Origin: a virus
DNA: 64,000 nt
UHGV virus genome: UHGV-0060833
Direction: 5' to 3' (one strand)
The notes below the pieces were generated by a model. That model saw only the letters and a list, made by a program, of their open reading frames with translations. It ran no database searches and was not told the DNA's origin. The position numbers and the translations under genes were made by a program. Every line of letters begins with the position of its first letter. Positions within the stretch are counted from its first letter, which is position 1. Shown here piece by piece: positions 42,995 through 48,536 of this stretch.

Positions 42995-43573
42995 GTGTTG
43001 CGCTTTACTGAGGAAGAGTTTCAGGCTTTTAGTGAGCGCCGAAATAAGGGGCGGTCCAGGCCAAAAACCAAAAAGGATCCATTCTTATCGCTTGCGCCGG
43101 TAAAAGAAGTTTCTCCACATGCGAAGGCACTTGCAGCACTGGCAAAGAACCCAGACCTGCGCGACGGAAATTGCGAGCACTTCGAGCAGGTTTTCATTTT
43201 TGATTACTTCGAACGCAAGCACCCTGACATCTATGAGCTGTTGCATGCAACGCCTAACGGAGGGAAACGTTCAAAAGCAACCGCCGGGAAAATGAAGGCT
43301 GAAGGGCAGAAAAAAGGTTATCCGGACATGAGTCTCGATAAAGCATGCGGTATTTATCACGGCATGCGAATTGAGCTTAAAGAACCAAATGGTAAAGCCC
43401 CGACGAAAGAGCAGATCGCCTGGATGCGCAGGCTTAGAGAGGAAGGTTACTACGTCGTTCTTGCGTATGGTGCAGAACAAGCGATAACCGCCATCCTGGA
43501 ATACATGAGCCTTAAAAAGGGTGAGGCTATTGAGCATGTATTGAACGGTGACAAGTGGTTGTATGCTGCGTGA
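42995..43573 (+). CDS. VRR-NUC-like nuclease (PD-(D/E)xK fold)
   Basis: 192 aa; GYPDMSL...MRIELKEPNG core. Confidence 0.5.
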   Translation: MLRFTEEEFQAFSERRNKGRSRPKTKKDPFLSLAPVKEVSPHAKALAALAKNPDLRDGNCEHFEQVFIFDYFERKHPDIYELLHATPNGGKRSKATAGKMKAEGQKKGYPDMSLDKACGIYHGMRIELKEPNGKAPTKEQIAWMRRLREEGYYVVLAYGAEQAITAILEYMSLKKGEAIEHVLNGDKWLYAA

Positions 43574-43736
43574 AATAATAAATTAATTAGTGCATGTGTG
43601 CTCTTTGATATAGCGCACATTAACATCGGGAGAATAATCGTGTCATCCAAGGCTAATTATGAATCGCTGGCATCGATCATGCCGCGTAATGAACAGGAAA
43701 CAGATGCTGTAGTGGACCCTGTAATCGCTGAAATGA

Positions 43737-44399
43737 ATGCTCGCCTGGAGGCTGAATTTGCAGCTGAGAATGAACATACCACCCAGGGCGACTAGGACTG
43801 TTTTTTGTGTCGGTAGCGGTCCGTCACTCACTCGTGAGGACTGTGCTGCTATAGAAAAAACTGGCTGTTCAATCATCGCGGTTAACAATTCCTGGCAGAT
43901 GTTCGATGACATTTATGCCTTATACGCCGGTGATTTGTCATGGTGGAAGCAATACGGATCCACCATACCGGGAGGGAGATTCCGCAAAGTGACAGCCAAC
44001 CTGGCGGCGGCGAAATCATTTTCGTTGGAGTACAGGCGATATTGTGGACCGGCGGAAGGGGTAAATAGCGGCGCGCAGGCTATCAGTCTGGCTGCTGAAT
44101 CAGGGGCTGAAGTAGTGGTATTAGTCGGCTATGACTGTTCTCTGCAAAACGGCCTTCATTGGCATGGCGCGCACCCTCAAGCCCTACGGAATCCAACGCA
44201 GGTGTCTATTTCAAAATGGCAACAGCAGTTCCTGGATACCCGCAAAAAACACGCAGATTTACATATTTTGAATGCAAGTAGGAGCAGTGCAATTCAATGT
44301 TTCCCAAGAATAAATTTAGAGGCAGTGATCGCGTTATTATCGTCGGCAGTGGCCCAAGCGCCGCAAACTTTGTTGCGCCGCGCGGAGTGCCGATTATAG
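43737..44399 (+). CDS. GxGPS Rossmann-like protein, paralogue 1 (MAF/GT42-like, tentative; start uncertain)
   Basis: VFCVGSGPSL...IIAVNN...NSGAQAISLA...VVLVGYD; 3' end overlaps the next gene by ~100 nt in another frame. Confidence 0.4.
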   Translation: MLAWRLNLQLRMNIPPRATRTVFCVGSGPSLTREDCAAIEKTGCSIIAVNNSWQMFDDIYALYAGDLSWWKQYGSTIPGGRFRKVTANLAAAKSFSLEYRRYCGPAEGVNSGAQAISLAAESGAEVVVLVGYDCSLQNGLHWHGAHPQALRNPTQVSISKWQQQFLDTRKKHADLHILNASRSSAIQCFPRINLEAVIALLSSAVAQAPQTLLRRAECRL

Positions 44400-44923
44400 C
44401 GGTCAATGGGGCCATCGACTGGCTTAACCGCGCTTCTTATTTTTTCACACTTGATCCATCGTCAGACAATATGCGGCGCGTTGGTCGTGGCCGCCGTCGC
44501 CGTGGTGTTTGTTATTGCATGGCACTACCCGATGTTAAAGAACGTGAAGTCAGAGACGGCGTTCTGTGCTTCCGTCGTGTGGCTGAACGTGGCATGGAGC
44601 CAAAAAATACGAATTCTCCCGAGTGGTGGGCGTGGCGCTGGTCCGCACATTTCGGACTTTGCGAAGATGAGAATGAAATTGCCAGCGGCAATAGTGCATA
44701 TGGCGCTCTGAACCTGGCTTTCCATATCGGATTCAAACATGTCGCCCTGGTGGGCGTTGACGCTACACAAGAACCACGCGTTCACTCCGGCGGCACGCCA
44801 AAAAATCTAAGTCACCTGCCTTTGTTATTCCAGTCTGCGCGTGAACGGATTGACGTTGTTTCATGCGGGAAAATGGGAGGTATTCCGCAGATGACTCTTA
44901 AAGAATGGCTGAAGAATACATGA
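44297..44923 (+). CDS. GxGPS Rossmann-like protein, paralogue 2
   Basis: [10 protein letters not shown]...IIAVNG...[10 protein letters not shown]...VALVGVD, the same motif order as paralogue 1. Confidence 0.45.
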
Positions 44924-45597
44924 TGGCACCCACAATTTATCACCGTATCGACGGTACCAAATACAGGAATGTCTGGGTTGTTGGTGATCTGCATGGTTGC
45001 TACACCAGACTGATGTCCGAACTCCATCGTGTGGATTTTGACCCGGCGCAGGATTTACTGATATCGGTCGGCGACCTTATCGATCGCGGTACTGAAAATG
45101 TCGAATGTCTGGAACTATTGCAGATGCCCTGGTTCAGGGCAGTGATGGGGAACCATGAGCGGCTGATGATTGATGCGTTAAGTCCAGATGGCAACGTGAA
45201 TAACTGGCTAATGAATGGCGGACAATGGTTCTTCATGCTGGACACTGATCAGGAAATATTAGCCTGGGCGCTGGTGGAGCTGGTAAAGCGTCTGCCCTAT
45301 ATCATTGAGTTGAACACCGGGCAAGAAACTATCGTTATAGCCCATGCCGACTATCCGGATAATGAATACCAATTCGGTAAGGAGGTGCCGCTTTTCAACG
45401 TTGTCTGGGCGCGCGAGCGTATCAGTGATTCGATGGATGATATTGGTGGCGAAATTTCGGGCGCAGATCGTTTTATCTTTGGTCACACTCCGGTGAAAAG
45501 CCCGAAGACATTCTGGAATCAGCAGTATATCGACACTGGTGCCGTATTTTGCGGAAACCTGACATTGATGAAAGTGAAAGGTGATGGTGCAGCATGA
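44905..45597 (+). CDS. ppp: Ser/Thr protein phosphatase (calcineurin-like metallophosphatase)
   Basis: 230 aa; motifs GDLHG, GDLIDRG, GNHE. Confidence 0.8.
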
Positions 45598-46295
45598 AGA
45601 TTGCTTTAGTTTTTCGCTCTGGTGGTGACTATAACGCTTCCGATGTGCAGTGGCTGGTTAATCAACTGCCAAAAGGCTATGAAATTATTTGCCTGACAGA
45701 CCTGAAGCGTTTACATGTACCTGGCGTCAAAGTTGTCCCATTGATCAACCAGTGGCAAAAGTGCCGTGGCTGGTGGGCGAAAATCGAGTTGTTCCGACCG
45801 GATATAACCGATGATCTGTTCTATCTGGATTTGGACACGGTTATTGCCGGTGATATACGCCCAATCCTAGAGCATCCACCAACCAGCTTCACCATGCTTA
45901 GGGATTTTTACCATCCACAATATCGTGGCAGCGGTGCCCTGTGGATACCAAATAGTGTTAAAGCGCATATCTGGAGTTCATTCTGGCAAGATCCGGAAGG
46001 TTGGATTTCTCGTTGTGTCACTACTGAGTGTTGGGGTGACCAGGGGTTCTTACGAAAGGTTATGGGCGATGATACACCAGCATTTCAGGATCTGTATCCA
46101 GGATGGTTTGTAAGTTACAAGGCCGATGTTGTGGAACCTGGTTCAAAATATGCGAGCGCGCGTTACTCCAGGGGGAATGGGGCATTACCAAAAGACTGCC
46201 GAATAATCTTTTTCCACGGCAAACCGCGACCTCGCGAAGTGTCAGAGGATTGGCTTCCCCTTATCAGCTCATTTTTTGAGCGAGAATCAGAATAA
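45594..46295 (+). CDS. Glycosyltransferase-like protein (DxD-type, tentative)
   Basis: 233 aa; FYLDLDTV segment; coupled to ppp by a 4-nt overlap. Confidence 0.4.
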
Positions 46296-46296
46296 T

Positions 46297-46313
46297 ATTG
46301 CTCTAATAATTCC
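46297..46313 (+). promoter_or_regulatory. C1 operator-like site
   Basis: attgctctaataattcc, 14/17 match. Confidence 0.55.
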
Positions 46314-46321
46314 GTATTTTT

Positions 46322-46352
46322 AAAACGTGATGTACACTCATCACGTTTTTTA
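46322..46352. terminator. Bidirectional terminator flanked by two inverted operator copies
   Basis: aaaacgtgatg-tacact-catcacgtttttt. Confidence 0.65.
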
Positions 46353-46362
46353 TTAGAGCAAT
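46346..46362 (-). promoter_or_regulatory. C1 operator-like site (inverted)
   Basis: ttattagagcaat is the reverse complement of the ATTGCTCTAATAA core. Confidence 0.55.
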
Positions 46363-46376
46363 ATACAAGGTGCACT

Positions 46377-46595
46377 ATGTGGCCATTCCGACGGAAATAT
46401 CACTACTGGCTGATCGCCTTTGTTACGCCGACCGGCGGTATCAGGCATGTCATCACCAGGTATCGCAACAAGAGACTCACCTTAGCCAGAATTTTACAGG
46501 CTGCCATAGGTGAGGGACTGGATACAAATTGCGTAGTCCTTCCTCCTTCATACTTAGGAAAAATGACCGAAGCACAAGCTAATACGGAACTTTGA
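46377..46595 (+). CDS. Hypothetical small protein
   Basis: 72-aa ORF immediately before and coupled to the 420-aa gene. Confidence 0.4.
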   Translation: MWPFRRKYHYWLIAFVTPTGGIRHVITRYRNKRLTLARILQAAIGEGLDTNCVVLPPSYLGKMTEAQANTEL

Positions 46596-46596
46596 A

Positions 46597-47859
46597 ATGA
46601 TCACTTCAGCACAAAACCAATCAATCGAAAATGTATCTATCCCTGACGTCCTGAATGCCGGTATCCCGGCCATTATCCAGAACATCCGGGCCGCGCAACG
46701 CCGCGTTAGTTGTGATGACCTCACAGCGCGTTTTTTTGATAATGCGGTTCAGTCAGCGGAGATGCTTCACGCACAGCTTATTGATGTTTATAACGCAGAA
46801 GCTGATAGCCATAACTCCCTGGTAGATGCAGCTGAAAATATGCAGTTGGATCTCGGTCTGAAGGATAAAGAAATTGAAGAGCTTCAGCTGCAAATTGAAC
46901 ATTTGAAACGCCAGCAACAGGACGCGATCGACGATGCGACGCATGACGCCAACCAGCGTGCTGATAATGCCGAACGTATAAGCATTGAGCTGGAAACAAA
47001 ACTCAATGAAATGACCGCGATGCTTGAACTGCGGAACTCACAGATTTCAACGCTAAAATCTCAATATAAAGAGATCATGAAACTTGATCCTTTTAACCTT
47101 GAGAAACGCTATAACAAAGCTAAAAGCGAGCGACAGGAACTGCGTAAGCAGGTCGCCGACCTTAACCAACAGCTCAAAAAAACTATTAAAGATGCAAGCG
47201 AAGCGCGCGTGGCATTTGCTAATAAAAAAGCAGAGGTTACCGCGCTGGTTAATGAGAATGCCAAATTTGCGACGCTCAAGAAGGAAATGTATGGCATTAC
47301 TGAGCACCGTTTCCCTGCAAGCAAACTTCATCCGACGTTAGGGCAAATCTCCTTCTTCCCGCGTCTCCTGGCTTATGGGATCTCATCGCCTAAAGAGTTC
47401 AATAACGAGCGTCCTTATATCGTTTCTAAGCTGGACTTTGCTTATCAGTTCTGCTGCGACATGGGCTATGCCATTGATATCCGAATCAACGAATGGTTGA
47501 TGCCAAACTTCCAGCCGTTGGCAATTTTCCGCGAGTTCCAGCCGGAAGGTTGGGTAGAGTTCTTCCATGAATTGATCTGTAAAGAGATGGAAAGCCGCCG
47601 CCCGGAACTGGTCCGCCGTGTCGAGTGGGCGCAAGAGGTTATGTTGGCAGATGCAGAGCTGCCGTTCGAACCGGAATTCATTGATGATCTGGCAACTAAA
47701 GGGCTGCATACCCTGTTTGATGTGGTTACCCGCCGTCATGAGCAGTTGGTTGTCGAATTGGGTTTAGAGGAAACTGCGGCAAGAAGACTTCTCGATGTTT
47801 GCTATGCACGTAGCGATGCATGGGAAAAAGAGAACGGCGGCACTATTTACGTTCGCTGA
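46597..47859 (+). CDS. Coiled-coil protein with unknown C-terminal domain
   Basis: 420 aa; residues ~60-230 heptad-rich; terminator follows. Confidence 0.5.
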   Translation: MITSAQNQSIENVSIPDVLNAGIPAIIQNIRAAQRRVSCDDLTARFFDNAVQSAEMLHAQLIDVYNAEADSHNSLVDAAENMQLDLGLKDKEIEELQLQIEHLKRQQQDAIDDATHDANQRADNAERISIELETKLNEMTAMLELRNSQISTLKSQYKEIMKLDPFNLEKRYNKAKSERQELRKQVADLNQQLKKTIKDASEARVAFANKKAEVTALVNENAKFATLKKEMYGITEHRFPASKLHPTLGQISFFPRLLAYGISSPKEFNNERPYIVSKLDFAYQFCCDMGYAIDIRINEWLMPNFQPLAIFREFQPEGWVEFFHELICKEMESRRPELVRRVEWAQEVMLADAELPFEPEFIDDLATKGLHTLFDVVTRRHEQLVVELGLEETAARRLLDVCYARSDAWEKENGGTIYVR

Positions 47860-47881
47860 TAGTTACAGTGTCACTTTTAAT

Positions 47882-47913
47882 GCTGGTGGAGTGCGTCCCA
47901 CCAGCATTTTTTT
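47882..47913 (+). terminator. Intrinsic terminator
   Basis: gctggtgg-agtgcgtc-ccaccagc followed by attttttt. Confidence 0.7.
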
Positions 47914-47932
47914 CGTCCAATGAGGAGGGCAT

Positions 47933-48439
47933 TTGAGTATTTTCAATAAACACGCACACCAGGAACGTCCGTATATCGTCATAGTCGATATTGATGGAAC
48001 AATATCAGAGGCAACTGAAGACAGACTGCATTTGCTTCCGCCACCAGGTAAAGGTGCATTAACAAAGGACTGGAACGAGTTTAATCTCGCCTGTGACACC
48101 GATACTCCCATCACTCCAGTTATTGATATGGTGCGCCAGTTATTTAACGTTTACACGGTCTGGTTTGTAACCGGGCGCTGTGAGATCGCAAGGGATAAAA
48201 CACGAGCTTGGCTGCGGAAATACGTAACAAACGGGGCTGAGCCTTTGCTATCTATGCGTCCTGCCACCGATGACAGAAATGACGGCCCAGCAAAGATTGA
48301 TCTCCTTAAGAAAATTGGTCTAAGTAAAATCGCGTTCGCGCTGGAAGATAAGATTGAAGTGGCGCGTGTTTTCAGGAGTCACGGCGTACTTACGTTAATG
48401 GTCAGGGAGTATGAAAACGCGCTTCTCCATCAACAATAA
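47933..48439 (+). CDS. HAD-superfamily phosphatase-like protein
   Basis: TTG start after gaggag; IVDIDGT (DxDGT) nucleophile motif; 168 aa. Confidence 0.55.
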   Translation: MSIFNKHAHQERPYIVIVDIDGTISEATEDRLHLLPPPGKGALTKDWNEFNLACDTDTPITPVIDMVRQLFNVYTVWFVTGRCEIARDKTRAWLRKYVTNGAEPLLSMRPATDDRNDGPAKIDLLKKIGLSKIAFALEDKIEVARVFRSHGVLTLMVREYENALLHQQ

Positions 48440-48455
48440 TTGCTCTAATAAATCT
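48439..48455 (+). promoter_or_regulatory. C1 operator-like site overlapping the HAD gene stop
   Basis: attgctctaataaatct, 16/17 match. Confidence 0.6.
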
Positions 48456-48536
48456 TGATTTTTAAAACAGAGAAAGTGAAAATAAAAACATGCCGCAAGG
48501 CGCGGCATGTATCCAATCAATCACTGGAGCTGAAAA

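Follow-up and report, generated by a model that had tools for sequence, protein, structure and literature searches.

Bacteriophage P1 is a classic model phage, in which about a dozen 'pmg' (putative morphogenetic) genes are without an assigned function. Glycosylation of phage particles is, to our knowledge, so far known mainly from mycobacteriophages, where gene sets of glycosyltransferases and methyltransferases have been reported to decorate virion proteins. Among bacterial enzymes, Maf proteins are linked to flagellin genes, and the acceptor of the GT42 enzyme CstII is lipooligosaccharide. Ser/Thr residues are O-glycosylated by Maf enzymes, for which CMP-Kdo can serve as donor in E. coli; acidic, Ser and acidic residues are required, i.e., E324 and D415 in MmMaf and D272, S334 and D357 in CbMaf.

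The pmgO-pmgQ block of a P1-type phage

The window analyzed here, 64,000 nucleotides of the virus genome UHGV-0060833, belongs to a P1/P7-type phage (98-99% identity). Its block 43737-46295, for which the first-pass annotation had suggested a glycosylation or modification module, corresponds to the P1 genes pmgO, pmgP, ppp and pmgQ, named hdmB, hdmC, ppp and hdmD in P7. The four open reading frames were confirmed with the positions and lengths listed here, together with the surrounding features.

dbn, 36804..37802, plus strand: directly after ban, ~6 kb upstream of the block; putative GT-B (GT4-like) glycosyltransferase
Late promoter LPpmgL, 42640..42658, plus strand: can drive pmgL through pmgQ; identical to the P1-annotated promoter
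C1 repressor operator Oppp (formerly Op83), 43580..43596, minus strand: immediately upstream of pmgN-pmgO; identical to the operator in P1 record AF234172
pmgN, 43598..43795, plus strand: small open reading frame overlapping the pmgO start; phrog_2350; annotated in P1 and P7
pmgO, 43737..44399, plus strand, 220 aa: DUF115/MptE-like (Maf/GT42-type) putative glycosyltransferase, paralogue 1
pmgP, 44297..44923, plus strand, 208 aa: DUF115/MptE-like putative glycosyltransferase, paralogue 2; phrog_2111, E 1.6e-131
ppp, 44905..45597, plus strand, 230 aa: lambda-type Ser/Thr protein phosphatase
pmgQ, 45594..46295, plus strand, 233 aa: GT8-like DxD (GT-A fold) putative glycosyltransferase; own family phrog_1962

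PmgO is identical to P1 PmgO, while PmgP, Ppp and PmgQ are each 3-5 residues off their P1 counterparts. The true start of PmgO is possibly ATG 43770 (M12), as suggested by the start positions of its homologues. None of the four genes is required for plaque formation, and a literature search for published work on pmgO/P/Q and hdmA-D returned essentiality data and no functional study. The block is made up of already known and named P1 genes that are functionally uncharacterized.

The reported overlap of pmgO and pmgP in different frames was reproduced (103 nt, 44297-44399). When this stretch was inspected for a sequencing frameshift, P1, P7 and two independent E. coli assemblies were all free of indels. 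With these four independent relatives in agreement and both protein families conserved up to the junction, a sequencing error could be ruled out. O-P pairs elsewhere overlap too; among seven that were measured, the overlap ranged over 7-133 nt and pmgP was always, as here, in the -1 frame with respect to pmgO, a constant relation that we attribute to ancestral start/stop coupling. The overlap contains the heptamer A_AAT_TTA in the pmgO frame (44312-44318). However, a programmed -1 frameshift generating an O-P fusion is regarded as a minor possibility at most, as the heptamer is missing in 3 of the 7 comparisons with other loci. The 4-nt overlaps said to couple the genes depend, for pmgP and ppp, on the start codon chosen: with the annotated ATG 44905 the overlap amounts to 19 nt, and a 4-nt ATGA results only if ppp starts at ATG 44920.

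Folds and families of PmgO, PmgP and PmgQ

The two GxGPS proteins had been described as paralogues, and they truly are, though distant ones. In a pairwise BLASTP comparison, the match is confined to the GSGPS...AVN stretch (E 0.004). Alignment of the two family profiles, built without the natural O-P fusion protein, covered 161 columns with an hhalign probability of 98% (E 1.7e-13). Both families share the motif order GxGPS / AVN / D / NS(G/A) / (L/V)G.D, and in PmgP the residues D53, G131-N-S133, G153-x-D155 and H173 are invariant. The most conserved gene of the module is pmgP, for which we found 327 homologues and, in a search of 1.84 billion proteins, 651 clusters at 50% identity. A scan of viral contigs with the PmgP alignment returned near-identical P1 copies only; the diverse loci came from a scan of genomes and from contigs that encode exact protein matches. 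The matches in a BFVD search were unannotated phage proteins of the same fold and nothing else.

Both proteins are predicted to adopt a Rossmann-like alpha/beta fold with an N-terminal GxGPS nucleotide loop, common to Maf, MptE and CstII. The closest structural match is Maf, and the best sequence matches are CstII and CstI. Using a merged O+P profile, CstII was the best PDB sequence match over nearly its full length (E 0.002), with GxGPS, AVN, (N/T)SG and G.D aligned to the corresponding CstII motifs. The single-family profiles reached E 0.1-0.4 (PmgO) or gave no match (PmgP) against CstII-type GT42 enzymes. The alignment stops before the lid of CstII, and in the putatively equivalent loop each protein has invariant His residues, H141/H143 in PmgO and H173 in PmgP; CstII His188, Tyr156 and Tyr162 presumably have no alignable counterparts in PmgO/PmgP. 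As judged by motif position, the invariant residues D66/S111/D133 of PmgO and D53/S133/D155 of PmgP lie in the motifs that match Maf, and the Ser-to-Asp spacing is 22 residues compared to 23 in CbMaf. The sequence similarity to Maf is not significant (E 0.57). The resemblance to Maf and GT42 enzymes pointed out from the sequence finds partial support in the structural match and in the marginal match of the merged profile. PmgO (23.4 bits) and PmgP (21.1 bits) both miss the gathering threshold of PF01973 (34.6 bits). Some homologues exceed it, including the O-P fusion protein P0051 (44.6 bits) and several with precomputed matches. The O-P fusion protein also carries a faint precomputed WaaZ label.

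The protein with the DLDTV segment, PmgQ, proved to be GT8-like. Its predicted fold is GT-A, nearest to GT8 structures, and its family profile matches the GT8 enzyme AgtA (E 1.5e-6). Across 29 homologues, D79-L-D81-T, H208-G209, P211 and P213 are invariant; by analogy with GT8 enzymes, the DxD is a putative metal-binding site. The C-terminal His motif (HxxGxxKPW type) aligns with NPKPWE of AgtA. Significant sequence matches of PmgQ are AgtA and GlyE, GT8 enzymes that extend glycans on proteins, compared to an hhalign probability of just 33% for the LPS enzyme WaaJ. The Pfam family Glyco_transf_8 (PF01501) did not match PmgQ, and one homologue reached E 0.31.

Linkage, neighbors and timing of the gene set

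O, P and Q genes co-occur in most of 34 loci from Gamma-, Beta- and Alphaproteobacteria, Bacteroidota and Gemmatimonadota, and all identified hosts are diderm. Natural fusions were found as O-P (P0051), P-Q, Q-P and Q-P-methyltransferase. Inside or adjoining the module lie methyltransferases (FkbM, TylF-like, class I SAM) and extra GT2-, GT4- and GT-A-like genes. In jumbo phage XacN1 the module adjoins ribonucleotide reductase genes, and in a conserved non-phage island the O, P and Q genes are interleaved with Big_1/invasin adhesin genes, as in Pseudescherichia. Neither nucleotide-sugar synthesis genes, in the neighborhoods listed, nor flagellar or NeuB/NeuA-type genes, in any neighborhood, were found. 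A search with PADLOC gave no match for PmgL, PmgM, PmgO, PmgP, Ppp, PmgQ or Dbn, and the idea of an anti-phage defence system was dropped on this result. In alphaproteobacterial prophages, collagen-like proteins are encoded upstream of the module; these were viewed as candidate acceptors and are poor in Ser/Thr.

The Dbn protein scores 25.1 bits against PF00534 (cut-off 26.4). In phage IME392, a gene flanked by the homologues of pmgP and pmgQ encodes a protein 51% identical to it (E 2e-100), and a gene 3 kb from a Q-P pair in a Buttiauxella prophage encodes one with 38% identity (E 2e-70). Judging from these relatives, Dbn is probably a fourth enzyme of the O-P-Q set. What is new here is the linkage of O, P and Q across phyla, their natural fusions, the company of methyltransferases and glycosyltransferases, and dbn as a likely fourth enzyme.

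The proposal of a glycosylation module is supported for O, P and Q by this linkage and the fusions, but it does not extend to the phosphatase, the TraR-like protein or the VRR-NUC protein that had been grouped with them. Ppp is a clear metallophosphatase, as had been recognized: it scores 59.3 bits against Pfam Metallophos (cut-off 21.5), matches the NinI-like phrog_246 (E 5e-113) and a PphA-like model (E 3e-81), and GDLHG, GDLIDRG and GNHE can be read in its translation. In the P1 record, Ppp is described as 64% identical to lambda PP, and it has the motifs of the lambda phosphatase (NinI) and of E. coli PphA/PphB and nothing unusual beyond them. Among the 34 loci, it is confined to those of P1 type (L086-L088). 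The P1 relative D6 matches our query over ppp only, and PmgP finds no match in D6. In phage IME392, the slot between pmgP and pmgQ that Ppp occupies is taken by the dbn-type glycosyltransferase gene. Judged by this distribution, Ppp is an enzyme in its own right that entered the operon in the P1 lineage and stands outside the module core. Upstream, PmgL is indeed a DksA/TraR-type zinc finger protein and PmgM is VRR-NUC-like, but neither accompanies the module in the other genomes examined, and both are unrelated neighbors. The small pmgN shares the operon and was not found with the module elsewhere.

In other genomes, the module follows the major capsid gene or lies within a group of head-tail connector genes, and 10 of 22 loci have TerL no more than 6 kb upstream; elsewhere it is found next to a Q antiterminator or a lysis cassette. 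P1's own module is not among head genes. Behind its C1 operator, the P1 module should be silent in lysogens. An effect visible in a lysogen as compared to a cured strain, as had been envisaged, is therefore not supported: given the P1-identical C1 operator and the late-operon setting of the relatives, such a comparison would probably show nothing.

Candidate acceptors and comparison with known enzymes

We favor, tentatively and at somewhat less than an even chance, that O, P and Q build glycans in the cytoplasm as a soluble module of the lytic phase, probably with Dbn as a further member, and that a protein is the likeliest acceptor. In the mechanism we infer, PmgO and PmgP would be paired single-domain enzymes of the Maf/GT42 type, most likely catalytically active as a heteromer, that transfer a CMP-activated ulosonic acid; the only such donor expected in E. 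coli K-12 would be CMP-Kdo. A host-derived donor is in keeping with the lack of nucleotide-sugar synthesis genes in the neighborhoods listed and with the diderm nature of the identified hosts. The laboratory host of P1 is not known to make sialic acid. PmgQ would act as a Mn2+/DxD, GT8-type retaining hexosyltransferase using UDP-hexose, Dbn may add a further sugar, and together they would make a short O-linked glycan. The predicted acceptor is a virion protein or another late phage protein, and surface adhesins in one chromosomal lineage. A protein acceptor is favored because of the adhesin island, the PmgQ matches to AgtA and GlyE and the Ser/Thr O-glycosylation by Maf. Against it, a cryo-EM study of P1 at ~3 Å contains neither "glycan" nor "glycosylation", and PmgO, PmgP and PmgQ are absent from the virion proteins that it names; the fibres, UpfB and Sit are unresolved in that structure. 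As the four genes are dispensable for plaques, a virion modification, if there is one, would be unnecessary under laboratory conditions. The full version of this proposal, which we consider unlikely as it stands, would be that P1 and many other tailed phages of Gram-negative bacteria attach to their late or virion proteins, by O-linkage, a short Kdo-containing, sometimes methylated glycan, by means of a PmgO-PmgP heteromer, PmgQ, Dbn and host CMP-Kdo and UDP-hexose. If true, this would represent a virion modification system new for Gram-negative phages and a natural Ser/Thr-O-Kdo protein glycosylation.

LPS is a serious alternative acceptor because LOS/LPS enzymes (CstII, LgtC, WaaZ-type) are among the closest characterized relatives. 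The same enzymes might add Kdo and hexose to the lipid A-core of new LPS at the cytoplasmic face during lytic growth. The LPS core is P1's own receptor, and an altered or truncated core would mean that fewer progeny or competing phages adsorb to the dying cell or to its debris. We regard this as possible but rather doubtful: late, C1-repressed expression leaves little time to replace surface LPS, and the recurring position in head-gene clusters as well as the adhesin island would be left unexplained. Membership in the WaaZ family was rejected, with hhalign probabilities of 10-17% and, for the NCBIfam model (TIGR04437 / NF007333), 11.9 bits for PmgP against a cut-off of 200 and no match for PmgO. 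It is also conceivable, and in our view improbable, that PmgO and PmgP are MptE/TPK-like pyrophosphokinases or other nucleotide-dependent enzymes acting on a small molecule or sugar, which would leave PmgQ as the sole glycosyltransferase. However, the best structural and sequence matches (Maf; CstII and CstI) are glycosyltransferases, and the constant partners of O and P are glycosyltransferases and methyltransferases, some of the latter of sugar-modification types (TylF, FkbM), including directly fused GT8 domains.

DNA, which had been listed among the possible targets, is a very improbable acceptor. Phage glycosyltransferases adding hexose, heptose or Kdo to 5hmC have been described, and hypermodification against restriction enzymes would fit the ribonucleotide reductase genes beside the XacN1 module. 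However, the P1 block is without a gene for a modified base such as 5hmC, the described Kdo/heptose DNA enzymes have a T4 beta-GT-like GT-B fold rather than the DUF115/GT8 type, and the module usually neighbors genes for the head or for lysis rather than for replication. Restriction enzymes routinely cleave P1 DNA, and in sequencing it behaves as ordinary DNA. Finally, dispensability for plaques and the unrelated Ppp would be expected if unrelated accessory genes, possibly in decay, had come together by accident and shared no function. For O, P and Q, such an origin is contradicted by conserved synteny and repeatedly arisen fusions; in addition, residues of catalytic type are invariant across phyla and independent P1-type sequences show no frameshift or indel, and we give this explanation hardly any credence.

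The genes pmgO, pmgP, pmgQ and dbn now constitute a concrete, testable pathway, whose three-enzyme core is found again in late operons of phages from several bacterial phyla, in jumbo phages and in a single adhesin island of bacteria. Should a virion protein be the target, phage particle glycosylation would be extended to Gram-negative hosts, with consequences in therapy for the immunogenicity, stability and host range of phages. If it is LPS, a new lytic-phase mechanism of receptor masking would result. In either case, small soluble Maf/GT42-like enzymes could serve glyco-engineering in E. coli.

Mycobacteriophage virion glycosylation sets resemble the favored reading in pairing phage-encoded glycosyltransferases with methyltransferases, but the enzyme families are different and the hosts there are actinobacterial; no glycan has been seen on a virion with the O-P-Q module. 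A conversion cassette of the gtrABC/oac type, with a membrane-embedded flippase, bactoprenol glycosyltransferase or acyltransferase expressed from the prophage, is not apparent, as PmgO, PmgP and PmgQ are without visible hydrophobic segments and matched no such Pfam families, and the operon is preceded by a C1 operator and a late promoter. PmgQ is shorter (233 residues) than the known GT8 enzymes (AgtA/GlyT of Dictyostelium Skp1, GlyE, LgtC, glycogenin and WaaJ) and forms the separate family phrog_1962. PmgO and PmgP resemble WaaZ, the KdoIII transferase of E. coli, in their sub-threshold MptE-like Pfam match and a similar domain size. From the Campylobacter GT42 enzymes CstI and CstII they are set apart by marginal E-values and by the loop, which reads HWHG.H in PmgO and LSHLP in PmgP. 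Maf enzymes (M. magneticum PDB 5mu5, GkMaf and CbMaf) comprise ~600 residues, with solved chains of 632-666, and possess flanking domains, whereas PmgO and PmgP are bare single catalytic domains of 208-220 residues that occur as a paralogous pair in phages.

The pmgO-pmgQ block and its overlapping paralogues

The window region 42700-48500 shares 98-99% identity with phages SJ46, P1 and P7. All reading frames claimed for the block by the first-pass annotation are present as it gave them, and the P1 and P7 records name them as follows:

43737-44399, pmgO (hdmB in P7)
44297-44923, pmgP (hdmC in P7)
44905-45597, ppp (ppp in P7 too), Ser/Thr phosphatase
45594-46295, pmgQ (hdmD in P7)

The P7 record labels the hdm genes as putative 'head morphogenesis' genes. 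The block is flanked by pmgL, pmgM and pmgN upstream and by pmgR, pmgS and pap downstream. PmgO is identical to its P1 counterpart, and PmgP, Ppp and PmgQ each differ from P1 by 3-5 residues. Plaque formation does not require pmgO, pmgP, ppp or pmgQ according to a genome-wide CRISPRi screen and an earlier deletion survey (PMC10695390); a functional study of these genes was not found in the searchable literature. Among the neighbours, pmgS (46597-47859, +) has a match to a head morphogenesis PHROG and encodes a long coiled coil, and pap (47933-48439, +), generically named 'acid phosphatase', encodes a phosphatase of the HAD type that belongs to the polynucleotide kinase-phosphatase family (PF25109, E 8e-12). 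The translated gene 25 product ('tail stability'; 40996-42213, -) shows by eye a SWIM-type zinc finger-like C-x-C...C-x-H pattern (CDCGRHQYWYRY...CKHVLHA).

PmgO and PmgP had been proposed to be paralogues sharing a GxGPS motif. BLASTP detected the N-terminal motif alone (E 0.004). Comparison of the two family profiles, from which the O-P fusion protein was left out, aligned 161 columns with 98% probability (E 1.7e-13), demonstrating that the proteins are paralogous, though distantly. The joint alignment revealed a common order of GxGPS, AVN, D, NS(G/A) and G.D. The 103 nt overlap of both genes, which the first-pass annotation wanted checked for a sequencing frameshift, is genuine: it shows no indels in P1, P7 and two further assemblies, and homologous O-P gene pairs of other genomes overlap too. 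PmgO probably starts at 43770. For pmgP/ppp, the suggested 4-nt coupling (ATGA) would require Ppp to start at 44920; with the annotated start, the overlap amounts to 19 nt. Within the O/P overlap, a heptamer A_AAT_TTA (44312-44318, +) is read in the pmgO frame, relative to which pmgP is shifted by -1. Slippage by -1 at this site would generate an O-P fusion of ~390 residues, like the natural fusion P0051. As the heptamer is not conserved at other loci, chance is its likelier source.

Composition of the O-P-Q module

Family HMMs were run on 34 loci, drawn from phage records, contig look-ups and a genome scan at species level. PmgO, PmgP and PmgQ homologues cluster in variable gene order in Gamma-, Beta- and Alphaproteobacteria, Bacteroidota and Gemmatimonadota, as well as in phages phiNP and IME392 and the jumbo phage XacN1. 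The PmgP family comprises 651 clusters (50% identity) in 1.84 billion proteins. Natural fusions tie the three families together, joining O-P (P0051), P-Q (P0220, P0289), Q-P (P0300), Q-P-methyltransferase (P0274) and methyltransferase-P (P0301). Variable extras in or beside the module include FkbM, TylF-like and class I methyltransferases, GT2-like and GT-A-like genes and a GT4-like gene. SAM methyltransferase domains (TylF-like, Methyltransf_23/24) are fused to PmgQ- or PmgP-type domains in XacN1 ORF373 (L114 6630-7946), P0274 and P0301. In this Xanthomonas phage, the gene following ORF373 encodes 1088 residues with a sub-threshold match to a PKD-type Ig-like domain.

In IME392, the P and Q homologues flank the GT4-like gene, which takes exactly the place that ppp has in P1. 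The product of this gene shares 51% identity (E 2e-100) with P1 Dbn (window 36804-37802, +), which carries a near-threshold GT-B Glycos_transf_1 signature. On these grounds, Dbn is probably a fourth glycosyltransferase of the pathway.

Ppp is an ordinary lambda-type phosphatase, in line with the earlier metallophosphatase call. Its assignment to the module was not borne out: among the 34 loci, Ppp adjoins O-P-Q solely in the P1-type loci L086-L088, and the P1 relative D6 shares only the ppp stretch with the query and has no PmgP match. PmgL (DksA/TraR-like) and PmgM (VRR-NUC) were never found beside the module outside P1-type loci among those examined. Neither Ppp, PmgL nor PmgM matched known defence systems.

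Genomic setting

In P1, the C1 operator Oppp and the late promoter LPpmgL precede the operon, and the window carries both sequences unchanged. The predicted sigma-70 promoter PpmgN (43541-43567, +) differs from P1 at two spacer positions, next to an identical C1 operator. Elsewhere, the module directly follows the major capsid gene in prophages of Pseudomonas and Zhongshania, or is located among head-tail connector genes, after portal-associated genes (alphaproteobacterial prophages) or beside the Q antiterminator or lysis cassette (lambdoid prophages). Of 22 diverse loci, 10 have TerL upstream at a distance of no more than 6 kb, and gene overlaps suggest co-expression with structural neighbours. 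These settings are of the lytic-phase and not the lysogenic-conversion type. In alphaproteobacterial prophages (L105 4258-5091, L106 5617-6672, L109 5782-6285), the gene ahead of the module encodes a conserved protein that may be a head fibre. It starts with a helix, continues with a collagen-like GXY spacer whose length varies, and has the sequence YRGVF...GD.VT.GGS.W in its C-terminal domain.

Candidate donors, acceptors and known relatives

Nucleotide-sugar synthesis genes were absent from all module neighbourhoods listed, and all identified hosts are diderms. To our knowledge, these share one CMP-ulosonic acid, CMP-Kdo. Transfer of Kdo onto Ser/Thr by Maf enzymes was shown in E. coli BL21 (bioRxiv 10.1101/2020.06.03.131540). 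Taken together, the most economical guess is that PmgO and PmgP would use host CMP-Kdo; PmgQ would use UDP-hexose.

Regarding the acceptor, single O, P and Q genes occur amid large Big_1/invasin adhesin genes in one lineage outside phages, represented by Pseudescherichia and a related MAG. This island (L112 1-18600 on the Pseudescherichia chromosome; also L090-L094) contains pmgO-, pmgP- and pmgQ-like genes in differing orientations and five such adhesin genes, one encoding an inverse autotransporter, an arrangement kept in five genomes. The island hints at adhesin glycosylation and, as Maf enzymes are protein-directed and the GT8 relatives AgtA and GlyE act on protein glycans, we favour a protein acceptor. 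The LPS core stays a strong rival: it is the P1 receptor, and LOS/LPS is what the relatives CstII, LgtC and WaaZ modify. The cryo-EM study of P1 at ~3 Å also counts against a protein acceptor: the words glycan and glycosylation are absent from it, and PmgO, PmgP and PmgQ are not among the virion proteins named (PMC12810830). Fibres, UpfB and Sit are unresolved in that study.

The glycosylation reading of the first-pass annotation is largely right for three of its four genes, pmgO, pmgP and pmgQ, with putative activity, and does not extend to Ppp. The genes themselves were already known, and database labels hint at glycosyltransferases; newly defined here is a conserved O-P-Q module linked by fusions, with Dbn as probable addition, and its late-phase setting and the removal of Ppp from it are likewise new. 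The module represents a putative phage-encoded glycosylation pathway that is directly testable in a model phage.

Comparison with known enzymes places PmgQ among GT8-type proteins. Its predicted structure is very confident (pLDDT 94.3), and the seven best structural matches are all GT8-type, among them AgtA (16.8), LgtC (16.5), GlyE (16.5) and glycogenin (16.5). The family profile matches AgtA with E 1.5e-6 and GlyE with E 0.005, whereas alignment to the LPS enzyme WaaJ is weak (33%). Residues D79-L-D81-T, H208-G209, P211 and P213 of PmgQ are invariant among its homologues.
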